NCBI GenBank assembly: GCA_943356485.1
Contig: CALRFD010000002.1
Location: forward strand, 37,032-101,031
DNA length: 64,000 nucleotides
DNA from: Patescibacteria group bacterium
Lineage (GTDB): Bacteria > Patescibacteriota > Microgenomatia > Daviesbacterales > UBA10151
Direction of reading: 5' to 3'
A program made the translations under genes and the position numbers. The first letter of the stretch is position 1, and every line of letters begins with the position of its first letter. Under the pieces are notes generated by a model. The model did no database searches. It was not told where the DNA came from and saw only the letters and a list, made by a program, of their open reading frames with translations. Below are positions 1 through 37,543 of this stretch, in pieces.

Positions 1-195
1 CAGGAAATTGTACAGGAAAAGTTTAAGGAATCACCATACTATAAAATAATAAACACAAAAGGACCTGATCATGACAAAGAATTTACAGTAGGGGTATATA
101 TAAATGGCAAAGAATATGGAACAGGATCAGGATCAAGCAAGCAAGAGGCAGAAGAACATTCAGCAAAAGAAGCGTTACAAAAAATAGTTTCCTAA
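1..195 (+). CDS. rnc: Ribonuclease III, C-terminal fragment with the dsRNA-binding domain (5' end lies outside the window)
   Basis: Frame 1 reads QEIVQEKFKESPYYKIINTKGPDHDKEFTVGVYINGKEYGTGSGSSKQEAEEHSAKEALQKIVS and stops at TAA 193-195. The GPDH..F.V.V.I.G...G.G.G.SK.EAE..AA..AL pattern is typical of the RNase III dsRBD. Confidence 0.75.
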   Translation, partial: QEIVQEKFKESPYYKIINTKGPDHDKEFTVGVYINGKEYGTGSGSSKQEAEEHSAKEALQKIVS

Positions 196-249
196 GCAAT
201 TCTGATTTAATTTGACTTTACCTTCTATCTCTGATAAACTATAGGGCGA

Positions 250-814
250 TTATTTTTATGAACGAATCTCAACCATTAAATATAGACCCATTAGCTCAAA
301 GAGAACAGGGGCTTAAAGAGCGTATCGGAAAAAAAGAAGCTCTGATTGAAAAAATCCAATCTCAAGGTGGACTTACACCTGCAACTGTTGCTGAAAGAAT
401 TAGACATCAAAGAGAGCTTCTCGTTGCCAGCTATATCAAAGGGACACTGGAGTTAGAACTGCAACCAAGACTTACAGAAATAACTACTCAGTTGGATTCA
501 GCTGCAAAAAAACTGGCTGAAAGCTATGAAGAAGAAAAAGCTCAGGCTGCCTTAGAGTTTGCAAAACTGGAAAGAACTGCCAAAAATACCAGCAGACGTA
601 CTCAAATTCCATATGAAGACTTAGTTGCTGAAGCCAGACAAGAGATTACACAACTGGAAGAAAGACCGCTCACAGACTCTTTACTGCAAAGAGGTATTAA
701 TTTGTTGAAAAAAGAACCAGAAGTATCCCAATCTGCTCCTGAAGAAGCTTCAAGGGAAGAAGTAAAAAAAGCAGAAGAGCCTGAAGAGGAAGAGAAACAG
801 AGGAGAGATGAAGA
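250..814 (+). repeat. Copy 1 of a 565-bp near-identical direct repeat (5' UTR, start codon and first ~185 codons)
   Basis: 250-814 matches 2180-2744 with a handful of mismatches (e.g. gaagtatccc vs gaaacatccc; aaaaaaagcag vs aaagaaagtag). Identity ends abruptly after ...gaaacagagg. Confidence 0.9.
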
Positions 815-2165
815 CAAAGCTGAGGATACAAGAAAAGTAACTTACGATAGAAAAACATATACAGTTACTTTACCTGATGGAATAGAAGTAAAAATCAATG
901 GCTCAATTCGGACTGCGATGGTTAATGCATTAATACAGGCATTTAAGGAAGAGCGGCTGCTTTCAACTAACGAATTAGCAGCTTTTATATATGGGAGTGA
1001 TGATGAAAACAGTATAAAAAAGATGCAAGTATTATTTACAAACGTACGTGCTATATTTGAAGAAAATAACTGGAGAGTAAATCAATTAACTACCCTCTCT
1101 GAACTCAGACAAGGTATACCTGCTCTCTATCTTTTAGAAAAGATTCAGGCTTCTAAGGACAATGAAGAGGATATACTTGAACCTACTCCGGAAACATTCA
1201 CTCGGGATGAGGCAATAATATTAGCTCGTCTGATTCTTAACTTTGATGGAACTAATATTGTTTATAAAGATGAGACGATTCTTACTGCAAAAATTGACCC
1301 TTCAATTTTAGAGATTGCAAGAATAGTAAGAGGTTTGCCCGGTGATGAAAATTACGTAGGATTAAATGACAGGGAAAAATTGGGAATAAGATCACAGGCT
1401 CTGGACAAATTAGGCAGAATATTGTCTGATAACGGATTGTTAAATGAGACTTTTAACTCTCAGACTGAAAGAATCCAAATACTACTGCTCTGGTTATTTA
1501 CAGAAAATCAGGACAGATACGGAGGTCTGCTAACCCAAATCCTAAGATCACAGGGGGACATAGTCAGTAATATAAATACAAAGAATCTGCAAGTAAGAGG
1601 TGTCCAAAGGAATATTCAAATTTCCCAAGAAAATGCAGCTTTATTAAGAGGACTGCAACAAAAGGCAAAAATAACAACTGCAACTGATTCTGACATTGAA
1701 ACCAAAGTAAGAGAAGAGGAAACGACTGAGGATATCGAAGAAATTGATGATACGGCCGATCCAATTACACAATCAAACAAGCCTTCAGATCCGGCCATAC
1801 AACCAACAGAAACAACCTCACTAGATCAATCAGAAGATGAATCAGAACAAAAATTAGGAATAAAGGATTTTACAACTGAAAATTCTAGGGTTATAGTAGA
1901 AATAAATAGGTTAGAGGCTCTCCTTCAGCAAGCTAGAATGCCGGACTCAGCTACAGGATATGCGTTACGTAATCTTGGTATTAGCCCAACATTTCTGCAA
2001 AAAGCAAAAGAAGAAGGCTACATTTCTTCTGTATCCTCTCTTAACAGAGTGGATATGGTCTTACTACTTATGAAAAAGTATCACGATTTGCGTAACTTAA
2101 CACCCCAAAGCGTAACTTGGTTAAAAAGAACTATCAATGAAACCCTGGCCAAAAGGGGACAATAA
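258..2165 (+). CDS. Hypothetical protein, paralog A, 635 aa: charged coiled-coil N-terminal module (about 185 aa) followed by an OmpR/PhoB-like winged-helix-like segment
   Basis: Long ORF whose N-terminal ~185 aa are nearly identical to the next gene. The segment NALIQAFKEERLLSTNELAAFIYGSDDENSIKKMQVLFTNVRAIFEE resembles the trans_reg_C wHTH pattern (..LL.L......S.E.L...VWG.D.......V.V.I.RLRKKL). No other recognisable family. Confidence 0.6.
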   Translation: MNESQPLNIDPLAQREQGLKERIGKKEALIEKIQSQGGLTPATVAERIRHQRELLVASYIKGTLELELQPRLTEITTQLDSAAKKLAESYEEEKAQAALEFAKLERTAKNTSRRTQIPYEDLVAEARQEITQLEERPLTDSLLQRGINLLKKEPEVSQSAPEEASREEVKKAEEPEEEEKQRRDEDKAEDTRKVTYDRKTYTVTLPDGIEVKINGSIRTAMVNALIQAFKEERLLSTNELAAFIYGSDDENSIKKMQVLFTNVRAIFEENNWRVNQLTTLSELRQGIPALYLLEKIQASKDNEEDILEPTPETFTRDEAIILARLILNFDGTNIVYKDETILTAKIDPSILEIARIVRGLPGDENYVGLNDREKLGIRSQALDKLGRILSDNGLLNETFNSQTERIQILLLWLFTENQDRYGGLLTQILRSQGDIVSNINTKNLQVRGVQRNIQISQENAALLRGLQQKAKITTATDSDIETKVREEETTEDIEEIDDTADPITQSNKPSDPAIQPTETTSLDQSEDESEQKLGIKDFTTENSRVIVEINRLEALLQQARMPDSATGYALRNLGISPTFLQKAKEEGYISSVSSLNRVDMVLLLMKKYHDLRNLTPQSVTWLKRTINETLAKRGQ

Positions 2166-2179
2166 AACCAACTCAAAAA

Positions 2180-2744
2180 TTATTTTTATGAACGAATCTC
2201 AACCATTAAATATAGACCCATTAGCTCAAAGAGAACAGGGGCTTAAAGAGCGTATCGGAAAAAAAGAAGCTCTGATTGAAAAAATCCAATCTCAAGGTGG
2301 ACTTACACCTGCAACTGTTGCTGAAAGAATTAGACATCAAAGAGAGCTTCTCGTTGCCAGCTATATCAAAGGGACACTGGAGTTAGAACTGCAACCAAGA
2401 CTTACAGAAATAACTACTCAGTTGGATTCAGCTGCAAAAAAACTGGCTGAAAGCTATGAAGAAGAAAAAGCTCAGGCTGCCTTAGAGTTTGCAAAACTGG
2501 AAAGAACTGCCAAAAATACCAGCAGACGTACTCAAATTCCATATGAAGACTTAGTTGCTGAAGCCAGACAAGAGATTACACAACTGGAAGAAAGACCGCT
2601 CACAGACTCTTTACTGCAAAGAGGTATTAATTTGTTGAAAAAAGAACCAGAAACATCCCAATCTGCTCCTGAAGAAGCTTCAAGGGAAGAAGTAAAGAAA
2701 GTAGAAGAGCCTGAAGAGGAAGAGAAACAGAGGGCAGATGGTGA
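2180..2744 (+). repeat. Copy 2 of the 565-bp direct repeat
   Basis: See copy 1. The offset between copies is 1930 bp. Confidence 0.9.
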
Positions 2745-4032
2745 TAAATCTAAAACTCCGGTTCCAGGTAAAAAGGAACTATCAAATAAGAAAGTATATA
2801 TAATTATTTTACCTGATGGCAGAAGAATTGAGACTAATTTCAAAAACGCGGCAAACCTCATTGCGGCAAACCTGTTAAGACCTTTAACTTCAAACGAACA
2901 ACTAACCGCTGTTTATGGAACGCTTGAGGAAATTAAATTTCCAAACCAGTTAGTAGGCAAAATTAGAAAAGAAGCTCAGGACATTCTTGAACAAAATGGT
3001 ATGAAAATGATTCAGCCAAACCCTTCAGATTCCCATCATGGCATTCAAAGACCCTTTGTAATTGTAAGCCAGGATTTTCAAATACCAAATATCTCAGTCA
3101 ACCTTGATAATAACCAGATTAGGCTTGATGGTAAAATACTAAATTTTGAAGCAAATAATACCAGGAGCTCTGCCAAAGCTTTACTTATTCATCTGGCAAG
3201 AAATGCAGCTTTTGCCATTTCAACTGAAGATCTTCTTAAAGTTGCAAAAGAAAATGGTTTTAGCGGAGACAAGACAGCTAAATTAATAAGCTCATTAAGA
3301 AGGCTCTTGGGCGATAACTTAAACCAACCTCAGATCATTTCAATCTATGGCAACAGAAACAGCTACAGTTATGGCTTAAACGCCAGGGTAGCAGTAACTG
3401 AAAAAGTAAACCCTAAACAAGAAATCACACATAAAGATACTGAAGGCTTAGACGAGCCAAAAGTTGTACGGACTATAAAACAAGGTCTGTTTCTAAATCA
3501 GCCTACAAATCCTGACCGGGTTAGAGCCCTAATAGCAATGCTTATGGAACCAAACATAGCAAAAACCGAAATCATAAAACTTATCGGAACTAATAAAGAG
3601 GGGCGGCCAATAGCTAATCTTGCCCGAGTCAGAAGAAGCCTTCTATCAGTAGCTACTTTGCTTGCTTCCAAAAATTACTCTGATACTTATTCACCAATAG
3701 CAACACCAGAAGAAAAACAGATCTGGAATAGTATAAAAGAGATAGTAAATATTGCAAGCGATAGAGAAGCAAGAAGGGAACTGGCTAAGAGGATAGACGA
3801 ATGGTTTAAGGATCAAAAGGGAGAAGCCCACCCAGCTAATGCTGAAACATATGTTCTCTTAGAAGAACAGTTTAAAAAACTAACCCAAGCAAGACTTAGT
3901 GCTGCAGGACTTGTTAGAGACGGCTTCCTTCAAGAATCCGATCTATTCGAAATTGATAAAGAGTTACTTTCAGTGGAAAAAAAGTTAGCAGAACAAGATT
4001 TTAAACGTGGTCTGATAAATCCGACAAACTAA
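2188..4032 (+). CDS. Hypothetical protein, paralog B, 614 aa: same N-terminal module as paralog A with a different C-terminal body containing a wHTH-like segment
   Basis: The ORF track starts at 2137, but the duplicated start context ttatttttATGaacgaatct puts the homologous ATG at 2188. The segment SSAKALLIHLARNAAFAISTEDLLKVAKENGFSGDKTAKLISSLRRLLGD follows the trans_reg_C pattern. Confidence 0.6.
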   Translation: MNESQPLNIDPLAQREQGLKERIGKKEALIEKIQSQGGLTPATVAERIRHQRELLVASYIKGTLELELQPRLTEITTQLDSAAKKLAESYEEEKAQAALEFAKLERTAKNTSRRTQIPYEDLVAEARQEITQLEERPLTDSLLQRGINLLKKEPETSQSAPEEASREEVKKVEEPEEEEKQRADGDKSKTPVPGKKELSNKKVYIIILPDGRRIETNFKNAANLIAANLLRPLTSNEQLTAVYGTLEEIKFPNQLVGKIRKEAQDILEQNGMKMIQPNPSDSHHGIQRPFVIVSQDFQIPNISVNLDNNQIRLDGKILNFEANNTRSSAKALLIHLARNAAFAISTEDLLKVAKENGFSGDKTAKLISSLRRLLGDNLNQPQIISIYGNRNSYSYGLNARVAVTEKVNPKQEITHKDTEGLDEPKVVRTIKQGLFLNQPTNPDRVRALIAMLMEPNIAKTEIIKLIGTNKEGRPIANLARVRRSLLSVATLLASKNYSDTYSPIATPEEKQIWNSIKEIVNIASDREARRELAKRIDEWFKDQKGEAHPANAETYVLLEEQFKKLTQARLSAAGLVRDGFLQESDLFEIDKELLSVEKKLAEQDFKRGLINPTN

Positions 4033-4043
4033 ATAAACTTCAT

Positions 4044-5057
4044 ATGACAGTTGAAGCACCAATACAGCAGCTTGAAAGACAAAAAGCTTTAATACAGGGG
4101 AAAATTTCTTCATTGCAGGAAGTTAGTTCTAATATAACAAACCCTGAATGGATGCACCAAAAAATCCTTAAAGGATCTTCTAGTGCATATAAGTTAAGAA
4201 TTGACTTAGAACAAAGAAGAGAAAATCCTGTACAGTGGGCAGAAAACCTAGTACGCGCAGGAACCATCAAAAGAAACTTAAGTACTGTTAAACCCCGCTA
4301 CCAAATGAGATTAGATGAAATCAATTCCCAGTTGAATTTCGAACAATCTCCTGCAGGAATATTTATCCAAACATTCCCTATCGAAAGTCAACCCTTAATA
4401 AAAGACTTTTTAAAATCTGATGGTGGACAAAATATCATTGATATTATCAGGCAAACACCCAAAGTAAACCGCAATTTACCCGATTTTAGTCGTGCCGTTG
4501 CCGGATCTATTTTTGAACAATTAGCATATATCCATGTTAAACCAGAATATAATCGGGGAAATTTTATATTATTATCTCCTGCAGAAGTTTTCAATCTATA
4601 CAGACAGATGCTGCCAGAAAGAGCTGTTTTTGAAGGGTATGGACTGACATTAGGTCTCGTTAATACGACTATACCTGATGGTATACTAATTGAAGCTATA
4701 GGAAGCTTAATGGTTATAAGAAAATTATTTGAGTATAAATCCTGGGTTAAGAAACTAGGTATAAGACAAATGCTTCAATCCGTCGAACTTAGCTCAGTAG
4801 ATAGATTATCATATCACTTAACAGGAAGGGATCGCTTCACATATGAAATAAGACCTGAGATTGGTCCTATTCTACATTCAATTCGACCTGATATTCCTGC
4901 TGATGCAACCTTAACAATAGATCAAAATCTTGAGCTAATCTATGTAGCTCCCCAAAACTCTAATGTTCAAATTTCAAATATAGAAACAATCAAAATTCCT
5001 ATTGACTCCCATGACCTTTTTAAATTAATTAGGAATCTAACAAATGCTAGCCATTGA
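4044..5057 (+). CDS. Hypothetical protein, 337 aa, third gene of the cluster
   Basis: ORF begins 12 nt after paralog B. Contains TIPDGILIEAIGS, which echoes TLPDGIEVKINGS in paralog A and ILPDGRRIETNFK in paralog B. No other recognisable motif. Confidence 0.5.
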   Translation: MTVEAPIQQLERQKALIQGKISSLQEVSSNITNPEWMHQKILKGSSSAYKLRIDLEQRRENPVQWAENLVRAGTIKRNLSTVKPRYQMRLDEINSQLNFEQSPAGIFIQTFPIESQPLIKDFLKSDGGQNIIDIIRQTPKVNRNLPDFSRAVAGSIFEQLAYIHVKPEYNRGNFILLSPAEVFNLYRQMLPERAVFEGYGLTLGLVNTTIPDGILIEAIGSLMVIRKLFEYKSWVKKLGIRQMLQSVELSSVDRLSYHLTGRDRFTYEIRPEIGPILHSIRPDIPADATLTIDQNLELIYVAPQNSNVQISNIETIKIPIDSHDLFKLIRNLTNASH

Positions 5058-5081
5058 TATTACGCATACTAATTTGTTAGA

Positions 5082-5546
5082 ATGACCACTATGCTAAAAA
5101 TAAGACTAATGCGAATCGGTGGAAGACAAAGACCTTTTTATAGGGTGGTTGCTGTTGATGAGAGGGCAAAAAGAACTGGTGGATATATTGAGCTTTTAGG
5201 AACCTATAATCCCTTAAGCGAACCTAAGGAAATTAAGCTCAAACAGGATCGAATCGATCATTGGGTTAAACAAGGCGCACAACTATCAGATGGATTTTTA
5301 AGAATTATCGGTAAAGCCAAACAGAGACTGCCAAGAAAACCTAAGAAGGAGAAGAAAACAGAAGGAAAGCCAGCAGGAGAACCTGCTCCGGTTGCGGAAG
5401 AGCCATCAAAAGCACCTGCAATTGAGGCAGCTCCTGTAGAAGAAACAATACCACCTACCAAAGATGAAAATCAAGCCCAGATTACCACAGAATCCCCGAA
5501 AGAGGATGCTGGAGAAAGCGAGACAAAAGATGAAGGATCTGCTTAA
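5082..5546 (+). CDS. rpsP: 30S ribosomal protein S16 with a roughly 70-aa Lys/Glu/Pro/Ala-rich C-terminal extension
   Basis: MLKIRLMRIGGRQRPFYRVVAVDERAKRTGGYIELLGTYNP matches the S16 N-terminus (MVKIRLAR.G.KKRPFYRIVV.D.R..RDGR.IE). The start may be the ATG at 5091 rather than 5082. The tail is low-complexity (PRKPKKEKKTEGKPAGEPAPVAEEPSKAPAIEAAP...). Confidence 0.85.
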   Translation: MTTMLKIRLMRIGGRQRPFYRVVAVDERAKRTGGYIELLGTYNPLSEPKEIKLKQDRIDHWVKQGAQLSDGFLRIIGKAKQRLPRKPKKEKKTEGKPAGEPAPVAEEPSKAPAIEAAPVEETIPPTKDENQAQITTESPKEDAGESETKDEGSA

Positions 5547-6527: not shown

Positions 6528-7241
6528 TTATTCAAAAGGATTCGACTTGCCCAAGGGAACAGCTGATGTGTTAACTGAAGAAGGCTGAGCAGAAACAAAG
6601 TCAGTAGCCGGAGCAACACTCACAAGCTTTGCGACTAAATCTTCCTCTTTCTGGGACAGAACCGGTAAAGGAGAATCCACACTGCCAACAGTACTCGGAA
6701 CAGAAGAATATAATGCCTCTATTCCCATACTGACATCCGCTGACTCCGTATCCTTATTAGAAACCTCAACACTACTTACTCTAAGTATCCTGTTTGCATT
6801 TTCTATATTATTCAATAACACAGGAACCAAAAATTTCGGACCTATTACTTCCATTTTCAAAGCGTAACTTTGTGCATTCTTAGCAGATACATTACCTAAA
6901 TTAAGTGTAACAATACTAAATCCGAGTTGATTTGAGATGTTTTGCAGCAAACTTATAGAAGAACCAAAATCCTTATCCTGAGGGTATATATTTAATACTG
7001 AATTTACTTTCTTTGATAAATCGTTTTGATCAAAGTTTTCTAGAACTTGAGCTTTAGCCTCTAATAATTTAGATTTGTTAAATAAATCTCCTTCAATCTT
7101 TTGGTTACCGATAAGCTTGAATGTTTGCGGCAAAATAACAAAAATTATCAGGATTAAACTCGACAAGGCTACGATACCAGGAAAAATATAGAGCCTGTGG
7201 CTTAAATAAAATTTAATCAGATTTTCTTTTTTTATCTCCAT
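6528..7241 (-). CDS. pilO: Type IV pilus assembly protein PilO-like
   Basis: Single N-terminal TM segment with a coiled-coil and periplasmic-type domain. Sits immediately after pilM-pilN in the same orientation. Confidence 0.55.
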   Translation of the reverse strand: MEIKKENLIKFYLSHRLYIFPGIVALSSLILIIFVILPQTFKLIGNQKIEGDLFNKSKLLEAKAQVLENFDQNDLSKKVNSVLNIYPQDKDFGSSISLLQNISNQLGFSIVTLNLGNVSAKNAQSYALKMEVIGPKFLVPVLLNNIENANRILRVSSVEVSNKDTESADVSMGIEALYSSVPSTVGSVDSPLPVLSQKEEDLVAKLVSVAPATDFVSAQPSSVNTSAVPLGKSNPFE

Positions 7242-7253
7242 ATTAATTGATTT

Positions 7254-7799
7254 CTAATTAACCTGAACCTTTAGGCTCAACCTATAGATTCCATCTCTAC
7301 CTCGATTCAGGCTATCCACAGAAACTCCGGCTATTTTCCCTTCATTAATGTCCTTACTGGTTAAACTATTGATTAAATTATCAAGAGAGGTAGAGTCTTG
7401 AGCAATACCTGTTAAAGCTACTCCTCCTGAGGGCTCAATCGAAAATGAGGTAACTGTAATAGCAGGAGGTATTAACTTGTCAATAAGTTTGTATATGGAA
7501 ACCTGTTTGGAAGAAACTCCAAGATATTTATCAATTATTGTTAATCTATTCTTCAGAACCGTTAATGAGACCTCTTTTCTTTTTAGATTTGAAACCTTTT
7601 GCTCTGACTCATCCAGCAAAACCTTTGCCCGATCTATGTTATGACTTTGCAGGATTCTAAGCGCAATCATAAGGGAGGCTAAAAAAACCATAGTGAGTAT
7701 AACTACTATACCTATCGCTTGCACCTTATAAAAATTAGCTTTTTTTGCCTCTGTTGTTATAAATTCAACAGGTAGTAAATTTATGGAAATTTTAGCCAT
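7254..7799 (-). CDS. pilN: Type IV pilus assembly protein PilN
   Basis: MAKISINLLPVE... N-terminus, then a TM segment, then a coiled coil. Position follows pilM. Confidence 0.65.
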   Translation of the reverse strand: MAKISINLLPVEFITTEAKKANFYKVQAIGIVVILTMVFLASLMIALRILQSHNIDRAKVLLDESEQKVSNLKRKEVSLTVLKNRLTIIDKYLGVSSKQVSIYKLIDKLIPPAITVTSFSIEPSGGVALTGIAQDSTSLDNLINSLTSKDINEGKIAGVSVDSLNRGRDGIYRLSLKVQVN

Positions 7800-7806
7800 A
7801 TGATAT

Positions 7807-8844
7807 TTAATCCTCTCTTAATGCCAAACCTACCGCAACAGAGTAGGAAGGTGCGTCTTGCGCCAGTTTTGATACTGAGGCTTTGTCTTTAGCAATTGCA
7901 TACCAGGGATCTGCTTCTTGAACCTCCAGACCTAAGGCGTTTGCAAGGTAGATAACAAAACCAGGCATTTTCGCACCACCTCCAGATAAAACTACTCTTT
8001 TTATTGGATCCTGAGGATACTTTGCTTCAAAGGATTGGATTACCCTTCTCCCTTCACCGGCGATTATATCTATAATAGGTTTTAAAGCCTCAAAGACCTT
8101 GCCTTCCAATTGATCCTCCAGTAAACCATAGACTTTCTTATATTCCTCTGCCTGAGTTAATTCGAAATTAAAATGTTGGGCAAGCGAGCGGGTTAGGGCA
8201 ATACCACCTGTTGAGATTGATCTGGTAAGCCAAATAAGACCTTTTGATACTGTAGCAAAATCGGTTGTTGTTGCTCCCAGTTGAACTATTAAGCTACTAG
8301 GCGAAAAGGGATTATTTCCAACTAGTGATCTAGTAACTGCTATTATTTCTGTCTCTAATATTTTTGGGTGCAGATTCGCCATATTTAATACTTTGATGTA
8401 TTTTTCTACAGCATTTTTTGGTGAAGCAACCACCAATACGATAGTCCTTGTATTTTTATTTTTTCCATCCGCCCGAAAAAGAACCTGCCAGTTAAGATTA
8501 ACTTCCGCAATAGGCATCGGGATAAATTCCTCAGCCGCATAGCGGATAGCCTGAGCCAGTTCATTATCTGTCAGATATGGTAAATCATCAATAACTCTTG
8601 TAAAAACTTTTGATTCAGGCAAAGCTATATTTATCTCTTTTTGCTCAATATGGGTTGCCTCAAATAATTTCTTAATAGAAGTTGAAACAGCCTGCAAACC
8701 TATTTCCGAATCAGAAAGCATACCAGGTTGAGGACAGGGAATTGATCCCAGTGATACAAGTCGTGTTTGATCACCTTCTTTTGCTAAAGAAACAACCTTT
8801 ATTGAGGAAAAACCAATATCTAAACCTACAGAAATCTTTGCCAT
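7807..8844 (-). CDS. pilM: Type IV pilus assembly ATPase-fold protein PilM
   Basis: MAKISVGLDIGFSSIKVV actin-like N-terminus, typical of PilM/FtsA-fold proteins. 345 aa. Confidence 0.8.
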   Translation of the reverse strand: MAKISVGLDIGFSSIKVVSLAKEGDQTRLVSLGSIPCPQPGMLSDSEIGLQAVSTSIKKLFEATHIEQKEINIALPESKVFTRVIDDLPYLTDNELAQAIRYAAEEFIPMPIAEVNLNWQVLFRADGKNKNTRTIVLVVASPKNAVEKYIKVLNMANLHPKILETEIIAVTRSLVGNNPFSPSSLIVQLGATTTDFATVSKGLIWLTRSISTGGIALTRSLAQHFNFELTQAEEYKKVYGLLEDQLEGKVFEALKPIIDIIAGEGRRVIQSFEAKYPQDPIKRVVLSGGGAKMPGFVIYLANALGLEVQEADPWYAIAKDKASVSKLAQDAPSYSVAVGLALRED

Positions 8845-8921
8845 ATGAGTAGTGGCTAGTCACTAGAGTCAAGAAACTAGGTAATAAAAGTGTACAATAA
8901 CCAGACTTCAAATTCTAGTCT

Positions 8922-10781
8922 TTATTTGATCTGGTAAGTTCCTTTAATTAGAGAAAACGAGCCTGAAGGACCTGCAGAAAAATTAGTAGAGGCAAGACCG
9001 CTGTCATAGTTTAAAACGCCGTTATTTCCCAGGCTAATTAACCAGGCAGTGATTTCTTTAAATGAAGCGCCATTTGATAAATTAACTATACCTTTAGGAG
9101 CATAAAGAATTCCGGAAACTGCAGAATTACCTGCATCAACAGCTACCTGGCCACTCTCTGAACCCTCATTACAACTACCGGCTTCTCCGCTTAATGTTGA
9201 ATCAAAGGTAGAAAAAAGCATTAAGTAACTCCCCGGCAAGCCGGATCCTTTTAGATCGCTCCCATTACCCAAAGTTGTTCTCCCATCAACAATAATCTGT
9301 CCGGAATGTGAACCAAACGAGGAGTCTAGAATAAATTTTGTTACATTCCCGCCGGAAATGTTTCCAGTTACCCAAAGAGGTGTTTTAACAGTTACACTGC
9401 ACCCGTTACCTAAAGAGATATTTCCAACAATTTTCCTTGGTCCAAGTGTTAAAATGCAACCATTCCCGCCGGAAATGTTTCCAGTTGTGACGCCTGCTAT
9501 TGCTGCCTGGTCTTTCCAGTCTGCTACATTTGCATCTGAAACCGGGAAAGTACCGGGAGCCGGATCTGCAGAGTTAGGATACTTAACCCCTTTGATGGTA
9601 ACTGAAGATCCAAGGATTTGGTAATAAGCATCCTTATTAATTGTCATACTTCCGGAAATAGTATTGGCATGAACACTACCGGTAACCTTAGATCCACTAG
9701 TTAAACTTAAGGAAGTTACAACCCCTCCCATATAAGTTTTAAAACCTAAATCTCCGGATATAGCAGTCCAGGCAGGATTTTGCGCCCGCCAGTTTGATGA
9801 CCATTTTGGCAAACCTTGAGTATAACCTCCTGCTAAATCATTTGACCAATACCAATAATTCAAACTGTCTAAAGCACCTGTATCAATCATAATCCAGTAA
9901 CTGGTATTTGCGCTAAGCGCGGGGGTTGATGAAAAAGTCACATCTACAAAACTAAACTGACTGGTAGATACCAAGCTGGCTGATAATACTCCTGATGCTA
10001 AGACATTATTTTTATCTGGTTTACCACTATTATCTGCCATAATTCTTACTGTCGGATTTGGAGGATTTCCTATCTTTTTAAGCTTTAAAGAGATTTTATT
10101 TAAATTTCCAGCAAGGGAGGGCTTAAAACTTTGCGCTACATCCAAACGGCTCTCAGCGGAGACGCTTTTTCCAAAAATATAATCCTGGCAATTAACACCG
10201 GCGCAATCTGATTGTTGATCTGCGCTGGGTTGTGCCCCACCTGCAATATAAATATCACCATTAATTGTAGTTAAATTTCCGCCAGTAACATTTCCATTTG
10301 AATAAATAGAACCATTTAGCACTGAACCATTTCCCATACAAAGTCCGCCTTCTCCAATTTGGAGACCATAGTTAAAGGCTACTCCCACCCCATTAGTTGT
10401 TTGAACAGTTATTGTTTTTTTGGATTTGGCATTTGCTTTATTTGGAACATAACCTGTTACTGAAACTATTTTACTCCCGGCATCCTTATTTGCTATCGTC
10501 ACAGAATATGACCCGCTACCTAGACTCGTCTCGATCTCACCATTATATAAACCTCCAGTCTTATTTAGAGAGGCTATTGCTTTATCAACTCCTGCTTCCG
10601 CTACAGCAGTAGCTGATTCAGCCTGATAAGAATACTGGGAGTTCTGAAAATAAACCTGCGCTCCACTAACAATAAATAATACGGTAAATAAAATAACTCC
10701 AAGCGCAACCATAACTAAAAGCAGAATCTGACCTGATGGATTAGCGCTTTGTTTTAAAAAATTCTGAGCCCTCTTAATCAT
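8922..10781 (-). CDS. Large (619 aa) Gly/Asn/Ser-rich pilus-operon protein with a PilX-like N-terminus. Candidate pilus-associated adhesin or tip protein
   Basis: The N-terminus (NPSGQILLLVMVALGVILFTVL...AESATAVAEAGVDKAI) resembles the PilX_N AAEAG motif. The body has repetitive GN.SGGN and NGS stretches that look beta-helix-like. The gene is embedded between the minor pilins and pilM, and overlaps its upstream neighbour by 8 nt. Confidence 0.55.
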   Translation of the reverse strand: MIKRAQNFLKQSANPSGQILLLVMVALGVILFTVLFIVSGAQVYFQNSQYSYQAESATAVAEAGVDKAIASLNKTGGLYNGEIETSLGSGSYSVTIANKDAGSKIVSVTGYVPNKANAKSKKTITVQTTNGVGVAFNYGLQIGEGGLCMGNGSVLNGSIYSNGNVTGGNLTTINGDIYIAGGAQPSADQQSDCAGVNCQDYIFGKSVSAESRLDVAQSFKPSLAGNLNKISLKLKKIGNPPNPTVRIMADNSGKPDKNNVLASGVLSASLVSTSQFSFVDVTFSSTPALSANTSYWIMIDTGALDSLNYWYWSNDLAGGYTQGLPKWSSNWRAQNPAWTAISGDLGFKTYMGGVVTSLSLTSGSKVTGSVHANTISGSMTINKDAYYQILGSSVTIKGVKYPNSADPAPGTFPVSDANVADWKDQAAIAGVTTGNISGGNGCILTLGPRKIVGNISLGNGCSVTVKTPLWVTGNISGGNVTKFILDSSFGSHSGQIIVDGRTTLGNGSDLKGSGLPGSYLMLFSTFDSTLSGEAGSCNEGSESGQVAVDAGNSAVSGILYAPKGIVNLSNGASFKEITAWLISLGNNGVLNYDSGLASTNFSAGPSGSFSLIKGTYQIK

Positions 10782-11340: not shown

Positions 11341-11738
11341 TGATTAATACCTCCTTCACCTATGAGAGTTTTGAGGGTTACTACCTGTGGTTTATTATTA
11401 TCCTTCCAATTTATTGTTACTGTTATTTTTTTAACATGTTCAGAATTTGTACAAATCTGTACGTCACAATCTTCAACGATAACAGTTCCGCTACCAGAGG
11501 GTAAAAGACTTAATCTTGAATCAGAGAGGTTTGAGGTATCATTAACTAGATTTGAATAATTTATGCTTCTTTTATCTTCAATCTGTTTTGCAGCGATCTC
11601 TTTTGCTAAACTTAAGTGACTACTTTTATTAACCAACCCCATCGCATTAGGTAAATTGGCCATTAAAATAACTATTGAACCAACCACTATAGTTACGAGT
11701 AACTGCTCAATTAAAGATGCACCCCGCTGAGTTTGCAT
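11337..11738 (-). CDS. Minor pilin, PilV-like
   Basis: MQTQRG|ASLIEQLLVTIVVGSIVIL prepilin motif. 4-nt ATGA overlap with the downstream gene. Confidence 0.65.
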   Translation of the reverse strand: MQTQRGASLIEQLLVTIVVGSIVILMANLPNAMGLVNKSSHLSLAKEIAAKQIEDKRSINYSNLVNDTSNLSDSRLSLLPSGSGTVIVEDCDVQICTNSEHVKKITVTINWKDNNKPQVVTLKTLIGEGGINQ

Positions 11739-11743
11739 TTTAA

Positions 11744-12634
11744 TTATTTCTTGATCTCTCCATTTGAGAATAAAGCATAGTCAAAAAAAGTAGGAATAGC
11801 TTTAAAGCTTTGGAAAACCTTAACCTTTCTTTGAACCTCACCTGCAGTACCTGTTGAAGTTAAAATCTTATACTGAGGCGGCAGAGAACAGTCTCTCCCA
11901 CATGTCCCGCTTGCCAGAACTGCAATTGGTTGGGAGGTTATATTATAGAGAAGTCTGACTCTAAGCATGATTAGGTTCGAAGGTAGATTTCCTAAGAGGA
12001 CATAGCATTGATAAGTTGTTGTAAAACCTTCAGGCTTATACCCAGCACAATTTTGAACCTGATCAAAATTATTTGCAGGCGTCCTAACAACCTGATCAAG
12101 ATACCATTTCCGGCTTACATAACTTGTGCCATTATAATAAATAAGAGTTAGTTCCAGGGCGGCTTTATCAGAACTTGAAGAACCCCAGTAAACAGAAAGG
12201 GTAGATTGCTTATAACAAACAGGGACGTGTTTAGTTGCATCAATTGCGCTACACCCGGGCAATACAACATTGGGATCAGGATCTGCTAACCATATTTGAC
12301 CTACTTCTTCTTTAGCCAACGGAGGATACTCTAAAGGTTTCTGTTGCGTTTGACTGGGAGGAAGTGCCGGGATACTTCCGCTATCTTCAAGGCTGGTTAT
12401 CTGCGAATTATTTTCAGTAAAAGTTTTTGTAGTCATATCCCCATTCAGGCCTTTTTCAATTCCTGCCTCAGCTGCAGAGAAAGCCCGCTGGGAATCTTCC
12501 ACCTTAGTAGCTGTTGAGACATCAGTCAAACTTTTCTGCACAACTGATAGTCCTATTGCTAGCGCTACTGTCATAACTAATATCAGCGTTAAAAGAACTT
12601 GTCCATCTTTATTTAAAATGTATTGTCTTAACAT
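11744..12634 (-). CDS. PilX-like pilus assembly protein
   Basis: N-terminal TM helix followed by QRAFSAAEAGIEKGL, the PilX_N signature (AF.AAEAG.E). Confidence 0.6.
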   Translation of the reverse strand: MLRQYILNKDGQVLLTLILVMTVALAIGLSVVQKSLTDVSTATKVEDSQRAFSAAEAGIEKGLNGDMTTKTFTENNSQITSLEDSGSIPALPPSQTQQKPLEYPPLAKEEVGQIWLADPDPNVVLPGCSAIDATKHVPVCYKQSTLSVYWGSSSSDKAALELTLIYYNGTSYVSRKWYLDQVVRTPANNFDQVQNCAGYKPEGFTTTYQCYVLLGNLPSNLIMLRVRLLYNITSQPIAVLASGTCGRDCSLPPQYKILTSTGTAGEVQRKVKVFQSFKAIPTFFDYALFSNGEIKK

Positions 12635-12674
12635 TATTTTATTGTCAGTTTTATATTGCTAAATGTCAATTGCT

Positions 12675-13265
12675 TCATCTTGGTTCTATTGTTGTTTTAA
12701 AAGTAACTGGTTCAATCTGACCTGCAACAGCAGCAGGAGCCTGCACACCCGACCGCAGAACAAATTCAATCGTAATAATATCCTTAAATCCAGCCTGGGC
12801 TGTTTTTGTAAAAGATCCAGATATCAAGTTTACTCCTGTTTGAGTATTTGTATCAGAGAGAGTTTGAGGCGCAACTAGAAGGTCAGCGGAATTACAAATG
12901 TTACTCATAAATATACTGCTTTCTACTCCGAGTTGCTGCGGGTTATCCGAGGAGACCTTCCCATTACTTAATCCTGAGCTATCTATTACAAATCTATACC
13001 TGGTATAAAGTCCATTTTTAACAACTACGATAGTGTGGTGATCCTGAGAGATACAAAAAATATTATCGGCGTTTCTGATACTGTTATTCATAGTCTCTAA
13101 AATTGACTGACCGTTTTGCTTAATAGAAGAAATTATTTGTGTTTTGTTAGTTCCCCGCAGGGTTCTGGTAAAAATAGTGACAACCAAAACCCCTAAAATA
13201 GCGAGTACCACTATAACTACCAGCATCTCAACCAATGTTGAACCCGCATTTGATAACTTCTTCAT
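12675..13265 (-). CDS. Pilin-like protein with a prepilin N-terminus
   Basis: MKKLSNAG|STLVEMLVVIVVLAILGVL. Confidence 0.7.
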   Translation of the reverse strand: MKKLSNAGSTLVEMLVVIVVLAILGVLVVTIFTRTLRGTNKTQIISSIKQNGQSILETMNNSIRNADNIFCISQDHHTIVVVKNGLYTRYRFVIDSSGLSNGKVSSDNPQQLGVESSIFMSNICNSADLLVAPQTLSDTNTQTGVNLISGSFTKTAQAGFKDIITIEFVLRSGVQAPAAVAGQIEPVTFKTTIEPR

Positions 13266-36703: not shown

Positions 36704-37543
36704 ATGCCAAAGATTGGTGCACATATTTCTGCTGCTCTGTCCCTCGAACTTAGTCTTGAAAGAGCCGCGGCTATCGGTGCAGAAACTACCCAAATCTTTA
36801 TCTCGCCCCCCAGACAATGGACTCAAACAAAACATGAAATAGAAGAAGTAAATAGATACCAATTGAAACAGGTAGAAACTGGAATCAAGCCAAATTTTAT
36901 TCATGGCACATATTTGATAAATCTTGCAGCTGATGATCCTGCTCACTTACAAAGATCTATTGAATGGTTAATTTATGCTTTAAACCTGGCCGGAGAACTA
37001 GAATCAACAGGAGTTATTTTTCATCTCGGGTCTCATAAAGGAGCGGGATTTGAAAAGGTATTCAACCAAATATCAAGCTCAGTTTCACAAATTCTAAACT
37101 CTAGCTTCAACTCTTCCTCACATTTGATTTTGGAAAACTCTGCCGGTGCCGGCGGATCTGTCGGATCAAAATTTTCAGAACTTGGACAAATAATTAAGGC
37201 TGTTAATAACCCCCGACTAAAAATCTGCTTAGATACCTGCCACCTTTTTGCTTGCGGTTATGATATAAAAAATAAACTTGAGGAAGTATTAGCAGAATTT
37301 GATAAAGAAATTGGCTTGAAAAATTTAGCAGCTATACATGCAAATGACTCTAAATTTGAATTGGGATCAAAGAGGGATAGACACGAGAATATCGGTGAGG
37401 GATTTATCGGTAAGGATGGATTTACAAAATTGGTCAACAGTTCCATATTAAAAGATACCCCTTTTATTTTAGAAGTTCCTGGCTTTTCCAAACAGGGACC
37501 GGATAAAGAAAACATTGACATCTTAAGATCTTTGATTAAATAA
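36704..37543 (+). CDS. nfo: Endonuclease IV (AP endonuclease family 2)
   Basis: MPKIGAHIS... N-terminus and HANDSKFELGSKRDRHENIGEGFIG, the Nfo metal-site signature. The ORF track starts at 36662, but the homologous start is the ATG at 36704. Confidence 0.85.
   Translation: MPKIGAHISAALSLELSLERAAAIGAETTQIFISPPRQWTQTKHEIEEVNRYQLKQVETGIKPNFIHGTYLINLAADDPAHLQRSIEWLIYALNLAGELESTGVIFHLGSHKGAGFEKVFNQISSSVSQILNSSFNSSSHLILENSAGAGGSVGSKFSELGQIIKAVNNPRLKICLDTCHLFACGYDIKNKLEEVLAEFDKEIGLKNLAAIHANDSKFELGSKRDRHENIGEGFIGKDGFTKLVNSSILKDTPFILEVPGFSKQGPDKENIDILRSLIK

Follow-up and report, generated by a model that had tools for sequence, protein, structure and literature searches.

The locus described here raises the question of why two adjacent genes of a Patescibacteria group bacterium (NCBI GenBank assembly GCA_943356485.1) begin with almost exactly the same DNA and then continue differently, and of what the encoded proteins might do. 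The genes lie on contig CALRFD010000002.1, within the 64,000-nucleotide (nt) stretch at positions 37,032 to 101,031 that was analyzed as a whole and is called the window; coordinates refer to its own numbering unless another locus is named. Gene A (258 to 2165; 635 amino acids [aa]) is followed by gene B (2188 to 4032; 614 aa) and gene C (4044 to 5057; 337 aa), all on the plus strand. The reading that we favor, with a probability of roughly 60%, is that A and B are tandem paralogues of ancient origin, in a modular family of DNA-binding proteins specific to Patescibacteria, and that 555 nt at their 5′ ends were recently copied by intrachromosomal gene conversion, most likely from B to A.

A position-by-position self-comparison of the window at an offset of 1930 nt found 551 of 555 nt (99.3%) identical between positions 249 to 803 (copy 1) and 2179 to 2733 (copy 2), both on the plus strand. 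An earlier note on this DNA, made from its letters alone, had reported a repeat of about 99% identity at 250 to 814 and 2180 to 2744; the repeat is real, and its limits are corrected here. Each copy consists of 9 nt (ATTATTTTT) ahead of an ATG (258 and 2188, respectively) and the 182 codons that follow. A leader and a coding part are thus both present, as had been claimed, but the supposed 5′ untranslated region amounts to merely 9 nt and the coding part to 182 rather than about 185 codons. Copy 1 comprises this leader and codons 1 to 182 of gene A, encoding what we term the N-module, and would be the recipient of the conversion; copy 2, the putative donor, comprises 9 nt of the A-B spacer and codons 1 to 182 of gene B. 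The only mismatches, in copy 1 numbering, fall at 723, 724, 767, and 772, leaving positions 249 to 722 as a 474-nt run that is 100% identical to copy 2. Identity decreases in steps along the alignment, from 100% over 474 nt to 95% over 81 nt and about 60% over 27 nt, and after position 803 similarity falls to background within about 25 nt. In a repeat search, the A/B pair was the sole direct or inverted repeat of at least 60 nt in the window. The GC content of the cluster (0.35 to 0.38) equals the genome background.

The two genes do not diverge completely beyond the repeat, as had been thought. Residues 187 to 300 of A and B are still homologous, with about 25% identity (z = 8.7; 0 of 500 shuffles reached the score), and only after residue ~300 do A and B consist of unrelated modules. 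The shared part contains a diverged winged-helix unit, U1, so the bodies are those of old paralogues rather than unrelated, as had been allowed for.

A near-identical repeat in a contig of this kind might have arisen during assembly, through a collapsed, expanded, or chimeric join that made a second copy. The source is a metagenome-assembled genome, the 555-nt repeat exceeds the length of short reads, so that a short-read assembly could not bridge it, and protein A is on record from the NCBI contig only. Each copy, however, has its own unique left and right junctions, and the four variant positions toward the 3′ end go with different bodies, which marks the copies as distinct rather than as a pasted duplicate. 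Given a single copy of each edge, the assembled order is the sole linear path through the graph. Over 12.5 kb, an independent MEGAHIT contig from ENA (k141; L001 in our comparison) agrees with the window at 100% identity. It stops at window position 2534, which lies in copy 2, about 120 nt short of the first difference between the copies, as is expected of a de Bruijn assembler at a true two-copy repeat. An orthologous pair of A-like and B-like genes is also present in another genome (L085). We therefore regard the repeat as genomic and an assembly artefact as very improbable.

The age of the A/B pair was assessed by comparison with L085, in which rnc is followed by an A-like gene (g1; E = 1.6e-44, the orthologue of A) and a B-like gene (P0006). 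In U1, A scored 155 with g1 and B scored 144 with P0006 (z = 26 for each), whereas the cross pairs reached only 45 to 48. This pairing by type places the split between A and B before the separation of this genome from L085. No DNA repeat was found between g1 and P0006, and the N-termini of their products scored 85 against each other, with about 34 to 35% identity. The window N-module matched the N-terminus of P0006 over its full length with a score of 184 (172 aa aligned) and that of g1 with a score of 83 and a 13-aa gap; it is thus B-type, as would most simply be explained if A had its original 5′ end replaced by one of this type. The start of B itself bears on this comparison: the corresponding NCBI protein (P0002, 631 aa) begins at the ATG at 2137, overlapping the 3′ end of A, but ATG 2188 (giving 614 aa) is most likely the start, since the methionine encoded there is where the repeat and the alignment with P0006, its orthologue, both begin.

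Two simpler causes of the identity were considered and rejected. Purifying selection on the protein does not account for it, as 158 codons show zero differences between A and B with all synonymous sites included, and a recent duplication is incompatible with the A-like/B-like pair in L085, which lacks such identity, and with the stretch just past the repeat, where A and B are homologous but only about 25% identical. Where the earlier note had left recent duplication and gene conversion side by side, gene conversion is retained and duplication dropped, the orthologous pair in L085 having N-termini that are 35% identical. Conversion would have erased about 65% protein divergence and left the 474-nt perfect core, and the loss of identity in steps suggests that conversion tracts are nested. 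In a further locus, L091, the N-domains of adjacent paralogues are mutual best matches, with 50% identity and a 63-nt stretch at 81% nucleotide identity, which suggests that homogenization recurs. Within-cluster N-domain identity thus ranges across genomes from about 34% through 50% to 99%, a series that fits episodic homogenization with the window genome as its most recent case.

A competitor for the same data is a single event, a very recent partial duplication or illegitimate replacement in which the 5′ 555 nt of B were pasted ahead of the body of A, with neither conversion nor ongoing concerted evolution. It would explain the abrupt left boundary at −9 nt, upstream of which nothing is similar, and the fact that a near-identical repeat was seen in no other cluster examined; moreover, N-domains as diverged as those of L085 (35% aa identity) would be too different for RecA-type recombination. 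The junction with the A body is nevertheless in frame and at the homologous position, the stepwise decay looks like nested tracts, and the mutually closest N-domains of L091 point to recurrence, so we consider the one-event account unlikely. Part of its argument does weigh on gene conversion. Homologous conversion presupposes similarity, and if the N-domains were once as different as in L085, either the first replacement was illegitimate or homogenization has been continuous in this lineage. The direction from B to A, in addition, depends on the single outgroup L085, in which a fast-evolving g1 N-terminus would mimic the same pattern.

It had also been suggested that the repeat serves specificity swapping, that is, that recombination between the direct repeats switches the body behind a promoter and N-module, or changes copy number, in a programmed manner. 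With 474 nt of perfect identity, RecA would have ample substrate to delete or amplify the 1930-bp unit, only A carries the promoter motif described below, so that a deletion would put B directly behind that promoter, and the family is modular with variable bodies. Direct repeats, on the other hand, lead to one-way deletion and not to a reversible switch, and both genes are complete and already cotranscribable. No recombinase or invertase gene was found in or beside the cluster, which is flanked by rnc and rpsP, with Pfam, NCBIfam, PADLOC, and PHROGs, and the alternative junction is absent from both assemblies. Such a repeat is lacking in four relatives checked, and L085 and L091, the relatives with A-like and B-like genes, are without it; it is therefore not a conserved design. 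Shufflons and hsdS inversion systems have inverted repeats, a site-specific recombinase, and silent cassettes, none of which is found in the A/B cluster. A programmed device is thus quite improbable.

Gene conversion between paralogues is already known. In the bab paralogues of Helicobacter pylori, conversion occurs in the 5′ region about 60 to 240 bp from the start codon (PMC4552749). The A/B locus resembles babA, babB, and babC in that nonreciprocal intragenomic copying of a 5′ region yields chimeras whose 5′ ends are identical while their bodies differ. The bab genes, however, encode outer-membrane adhesins at separate loci and convert phase-variable CT repeats, whereas A and B are adjacent and predicted to be cytoplasmic and DNA binding, the tract is a whole 182-codon domain, and there is no phase-variable element. 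The tufA and tufB genes of Escherichia coli and Salmonella are a further example of conversion between paralogues. Polymorphic toxin loci (Rhs/CdiA) offer another likeness, as they combine a constant N-terminal part with variable C-terminal modules and orphan cassettes in variable arrays, and short shared regions allow recombination of the cassettes. The products of such loci, however, are toxins that are secreted and accompanied by immunity genes and promoterless orphan cassettes, unlike A and B, which are complete, apparently cytoplasmic, DNA-binding proteins without immunity genes and which share a whole start-proximal domain.

To delimit the modules of the three proteins, iterative local hidden Markov models (HMMs) were built, and the profiles were then rebuilt without the window sequences. 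These leave-window-out profiles recovered all of the modules. In A they are N (residues 14 to 158; E = 3e-18), the OmpR-type winged helix-turn-helix U1 (199 to 279, nt 852 to 1094; 1e-17), X (314 to 433, nt 1197 to 1556; 5e-23), and, after an acidic linker at about 470 to 535, CTD (543 to 635, nt 1884 to 2162; 7e-5). In B they are N (14 to 158; 1e-17), U1 (202 to 279, nt 2791 to 3024; 5e-10), a second OmpR-type winged helix termed U2 (300 to 401, nt 3085 to 3390; 7e-21), and M (442 to 544, nt 3511 to 3819; 1e-20), followed by a helical tail (553 to 614). C consists of a helical N-part, Cn (9 to 97, nt 4068 to 4334; 1e-27), and the C-domain (114 to 325, nt 4383 to 5018; 6e-58). U2 was not detected in A, with the leave-window-out profiles included, and no winged helix was detectable in C. 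Homology of the window N-module to Cn or to the N-terminus of the related protein at L007 was unsupported (z ≤ 0.7). By eye, A, B, and C are without signal peptides.

The winged helices are best seen at the level of the family. Against the Pfam model Trans_reg_C (PF00486), for which the gathering cutoff is 26.2 bits, the U1 family consensus scored 40.6 bits (E = 2.8e-10) and the U2 consensus 25.9 bits, near the cutoff; 7 of 19 family members matched (best E = 1.2e-8), as did the syntenic L007 protein (26.6 bits). B alone remained under the cutoff at 13.9 to 15.3 bits, and A alone gave no match. A U2 profile of B and the L007 protein was compared with PDB, and its 17 best matches were OmpR, ToxR, YycF/WalR, VicR, RstA, and MtrA (E = 6e-5 to 7e-3), while the U1 profile had no match there and those of M and CTD found nothing convincing. 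The AlphaFold2 (AF2) model of B places strands and then three helices at 204 to 269 and 302 to 374, in the order that fits OmpR/PhoB-type domains, with a predicted local distance difference test score (pLDDT) below 50 in these regions and no wing modeled; long helices run through the N-domain, at low confidence, in agreement with the charged helical N-terminal domain that had been proposed. A thus appears to combine a predicted helical N-domain with one OmpR/PhoB-type winged helix and B to combine it with two, which supports the earlier assignment of such helices to both proteins. No significant match to N, M, X, or CTD was obtained in the libraries searched; M and CTD are faintly helix-turn-helix-like, the CTD profile touched GlnR (MerR type) at E = 0.002, among noise of equal strength, and the consensus gave weak winged helix-turn-helix matches at most (E of about 0.004 to 0.005).

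No receiver domain (REC/Response_reg) was matched in A, B, or the 19 family members. The likeness to the OmpR/PhoB domain, which also occurs in the receiverless proteins ToxR and CadC, extends to the Trans_reg_C profile and to structures of OmpR, ToxR, WalR, RstA, and CadC. It does not extend to the overall layout, since the A/B family has neither a receiver domain nor a transmembrane segment and instead carries its winged helices in tandem arrays of one to three between a helical N-domain of about 150 aa and the modules M, X, and CTD.

Searches of Pfam, NCBIfam, PADLOC, and PHROGs with A, B, and C returned nothing significant, and at 90% clustering each protein forms a single-member cluster. 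A word-indexed search of 5.8 billion clusters, which recovered the window's own proteins only, had suggested that they are orphans, but this was overturned by an exhaustive HMMER search with B and C concatenated against 1.84 billion representatives. It yielded 113 proteins, 3 of them the window's own, leaving 110 relatives as counted at 50% clustering. The view that none of the genes belongs to a clear family therefore stands for the curated libraries and fails for the exhaustive search, which reveals a sizeable undescribed family. Relatives of B include P0004 (4e-53), P0006 (4.5e-38), and P0023 (1.8e-17), and about 90 proteins share the C-terminal 210 to 220 residues of C. The 7 looked-up members with a source name are all labeled "hypothetical protein" and come from Daviesbacteria, Curtissbacteria, or Saccharimonadales, and the closest family loci are Daviesbacteria-like by synteny; among members with source names, the family is thus restricted to Patescibacteria as far as these records go.

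Within the family the modules recur in many combinations. Single proteins with N or U followed by M, X, and CTD (P0023, P0047, P0071, and P0110) span what A and B divide between them: B aligns to residues 22 to 435 of P0023, and the body of A aligns to residues 387 to 502 of P0023 and 409 to 625 of P0047. These alignments to consecutive parts of long relatives make A and B complementary partial versions, each of which keeps N and U1. About 18 proteins join N to the C-domain, a few of them with a partial N match only; M, X, and the C-domain, with or without CTD, are fused in P0017 and P0020, and further fusions are U2-X-C-domain (P0018), C-domain-U2-X (P0009), N-U2-C-domain (P0061), and U2-C-domain (P0027). 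CTD terminates proteins of both the winged-helix and the C-domain type. A constant N-domain with variable bodies, as had been proposed, therefore holds at the level of the family, in which N occurs with winged-helix arrays and with the C-domain. Because of these fusions, and because C-like genes adjoin B-like genes at the same chromosomal position in L083 and L091, we argue that A/B-type and C-type proteins probably work together.

In L084, the N-domain lies on a separate 126-aa open reading frame (ORF; 62 to 442) that overlaps the start of the 665-aa P0023 (402 to 2399), a frameshift that could reflect a pseudogene, a sequencing error, or a programmed event. In L091, a 95-aa ORF (7722 to 8009) immediately following the C-like gene carries a repeat of that gene's N-part (for example, LKWLDNLERVGRIKLALK versus LTWLDNLERVGRLRLGLK) and is another partial N-terminal module duplication inside such a cluster.

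The C-domain was examined for conserved positions in 96 homologues. Conservation is highest at G154 (94%), E158 (91%), L177-S-P179 (83 to 89%), P211 (93%), and D212 (97%); position 230 is acidic in 100% (E in 89% and D in 11%), K232 is kept in 77%, and a downstream Q is found in 81%, where C itself has M. C carries E158 (nt 4515 to 4517), P211-D212 (nt 4674 to 4679), and E230-Y-K232 (nt 4731 to 4739) and with these the full E...PD...(D/E)xK pattern, at spacings of 54 and 18 residues. Such a pattern with such spacings is the signature of PD-(D/E)xK nucleases, a group that includes Mrr-like type IV restriction enzymes and the RecB/Cas4 (QxxxY) branch, some of them coupled to winged-helix readers. 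From this motif we infer that the C-domain is nuclease-like. It keeps the acidic residue in a helix-like segment, the PD, and the (D/E)-x-K, and most homologues have a downstream Q...Y reminiscent of the QxxxY of RecB/Cas4-like enzymes; fusion to winged helices in relatives recalls the reader-nuclease coupling of Mrr. Neither sequence nor profile comparison with Pfam, NCBIfam, PHROGs, or PDB, however, connected the domain to a known nuclease family, and in contrast to Mrr-type enzymes, the reader and nuclease parts are mostly separate proteins that share an N-terminal helical module. The C-domain itself is undescribed, being absent from every curated library searched.

A motif [TI][LI]PDG-x-x-IE had been reported in all three genes. 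It is present in B (ILPDGRRIE) and C (TIPDGILIE), but A (TLPDGIEV) lacks the two-residue spacer. The LPDG of A and B is located in the first strands of U1, and the resemblance of C to them is a coincidence, since its P211-D212 belongs to a different, unrelated domain.

Two members of the C family, P0019 (residues 127 to 209) and P0082 (135 to 200), carry an extra N-terminal domain that matches the PADLOC model PDC-M05A. M05A is described as the nucleotidyltransferase of a HEPN/nucleotidyltransferase candidate defense system that resembles toxin-antitoxin pairs (PMC12988326). PDC-M05A was rejected as the identity of the C-domain, as the matches fall in the extra nucleotidyltransferase-like domain fused to these two proteins. 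Among the 96 C-family members there were also single weak PADLOC matches to CARF3 (E = 0.0004) and QatB (E = 0.007 to 0.01).

The region upstream of A was scanned for promoters and contains a family-specific promoter-like element at 212 to 245 on the plus strand (TTGACT, 17 nt, TAAACT, ATAGG) that ends 12 nt before the ATG; the full downstream part, after TTGACT and 17 nt, reads TAAACTATAGG. The same arrangement, TAAACTATA[AG]G with TTGAC[AT] 17 nt upstream, stands 5 to 12 nt before family starts in L083 (~870 to 905), L084 (~20 to 52), L085 (twice, ~70 to 107 and ~2540 to 2576), L086 (~835 to 871), and L087 (~6970 to 6996 and ~8905 to 8939). Within about 1.4 Mb of compared loci, TAAACTATA[AG]G was seen at no other place, and the exact 11-mer is found once in the window. 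The element, which is conserved better than the proteins downstream of it, may act as a dedicated promoter or as an operator for autoregulation. It also looks, by eye, like the ACTATAGGG initiation region of T7/SP6 promoters, probably by coincidence. A and B are separated by 22 nt and B and C by 11 nt, neither B nor C has such a motif, and no plus-strand terminator was found in the cluster; given these short gaps, the missing terminator, and the single promoter motif, A, B, and C are probably cotranscribed as a single operon whose leader is very short. RNA structure in the leader of A is unremarkable (z = 0).

The cluster lies between the 3′ end of rnc (RNase III with its double-stranded RNA-binding domain; 1 to 195, plus strand) and rpsP (ribosomal protein S16; 5082 to 5546, plus strand). 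The former was recognized by translation, which matches the RNase III C-termini of 12 Daviesbacteria relatives, and by Pfam annotation (Ribonuclease_3/dsrm) of the rnc orthologues in L086, L087, and L091; the latter was recognized by a match of Pfam Ribosomal_S16 to the identical gene of L001. Downstream of rpsP follow a KH-domain gene and trmD and then, on the other strand, pilO, pilN, and pilM. Loci anchored on TrmD place the source organism in Candidatus Daviesbacteria (Patescibacteria/CPR); the closest species representatives have about 70% TrmD identity. In 10 of the 12 Daviesbacteria relatives that have both genes, rpsP begins 20 to 45 nt after rnc, so A, B, and C (~196 to 5081) fill a variable slot. 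Its content differs among relatives: L086 has one 708-aa family gene between rnc and rpsP, L091 has five genes there (569, 795, 464, 336, and 95 aa), and L083 has an AbiE toxin-antitoxin system, a 705-aa B-like gene, and a 362-aa C-like gene ahead of rpsP. In L007 the slot holds a 487-aa related winged-helix protein, an unknown 472-aa gene, and a ribbon-helix-helix (RHH)/PIN toxin-antitoxin pair. L087 has at least five genes after rnc, one with a weak GHKL-ATPase match. The Saccharimonadales loci L089 and L093 carry arrays of family modules in another slot, between a tRNA synthetase gene and mraZ, and toxin-antitoxin genes stand beside the family cluster in L007, L083, and L093. The comparison of copy number among related genomes that the earlier note had called for thus shows a family whose copy number varies and whose presence is patchy.

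Family orthologues are only 33 to 39% identical, versus 70 to 75% for TrmD and PilM. Fast evolution, variable copy number, patchy presence, and nearby toxin-antitoxin genes together suggest a role in conflict or defense. The mechanism that we favor, probably that of a DNA-targeting complex and possibly one for defense, would run as follows. The N-domain would be a coiled-coil assembly module that joins A, B, and N-bearing partners in one complex, and with identical N-domains, A and B could pair in the manner of the single ancestral protein. The complex would bind DNA through the winged helices, act on it through the nuclease-like domain of C, and may work as a conflict or defense system. Stated in full, and held only tentatively as one possibility, this would be an undescribed, Patescibacteria-restricted, multicomponent DNA-targeting (defense-like) system of winged-helix-array readers and a new PD-(D/E)xK-like nuclease, joined through the N-terminal coiled-coil domain that they share, with a dedicated, near-leaderless promoter driving expression. 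Conversion of the N-domain would keep the split readers compatible, and the system would occupy hypervariable slots between rnc and rpsP in Daviesbacteria and between the tRNA synthetase gene and mraZ in Saccharimonadales.

Several results weigh against this proposal. Searches of the PADLOC-DB v2 defense models with A, B, and C gave no match at E ≤ 1. None of the 96 C-domain members nor their consensus matched Pfam, NCBIfam, or PHROG, a C-domain profile found no solved structure in PDB, and the single-sequence AF2 models (pLDDT of 45.6 for B and 35.1 for C) are unusable for folds. That C adopts a nuclease fold and that N-domains pair as coiled coils are accordingly predictions, and the nuclease assignment stays at the level of motifs. 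P0072, moreover, stands alone beside rho, and members therefore need not act in clusters. This last observation also fits a serious alternative in which A and B are ordinary transcription factors, such as autoregulators acting on the conserved motif, and C is an unrelated neighbor. OmpR-type winged helices are classic transcription-factor domains, the promoter motif could be their operator, and the long family gene of L086 is not accompanied by a C-like gene. The repeated fusion of A/B-type modules to the C-domain in one polypeptide speaks against that alternative, as does the recurrence, in independent genomes, of C-like genes next to B-like ones at the same slot, and the divergence of orthologues relative to TrmD and PilM, with patchy presence and variable copy number, would be unusual for housekeeping regulators; we consider it somewhat unlikely. 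Searches by tblastn for relatives of C in phages and plasmids, and for those of B in phages, returned nothing.

The genomes of the Candidate Phyla Radiation (CPR) are tiny, and much of their gene content is unannotated. Here, three hypothetical CPR genes become a defined modular family with 110 relatives, DNA-binding units, a nuclease-like domain, a promoter, and preferred slots; the family, the nuclease-like domain, the promoter, and the slot behavior are undescribed. If a DNA-targeting complex is indeed formed, it would be a CPR-specific immune or DNA-processing system and would bear on how these episymbionts handle foreign DNA. The locus also presents a clean natural case of domain-scale conversion between old paralogues in a streamlined genome, with the unconverted orthologous state kept in a relative, and it is relevant to how the interaction modules of split multidomain proteins stay matched.

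Some further observations concern the slot and the remainder of the window. The GHKL match in L087 belongs to a 536-aa gene (11487 to 13097) of the expanded cluster with a weak match to HATPase_c_3, which has no counterpart in the window; GHKL-type ATPases are common in conflict systems. In L007, a 61-nt direct repeat with 89% identity (8315 to 8375 and 9227 to 9287), comprising the rpsP promoter region and first codons, flanks the RHH/PIN (VapBC-like) cassette and suggests insertion at the rpsP start with target duplication. No tRNA genes and no Rfam families at the gathering threshold were found in the 64-kb window. The S16 protein encoded in the window (154 aa) has an acidic, low-complexity C-terminal extension of about 70 residues, which is present but variable in relatives. 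GC content rises to 0.46 to 0.50 at 44 to 47 kb, at the site of two large ORFs on the minus strand (611 and 868 aa) rather than of rRNA.

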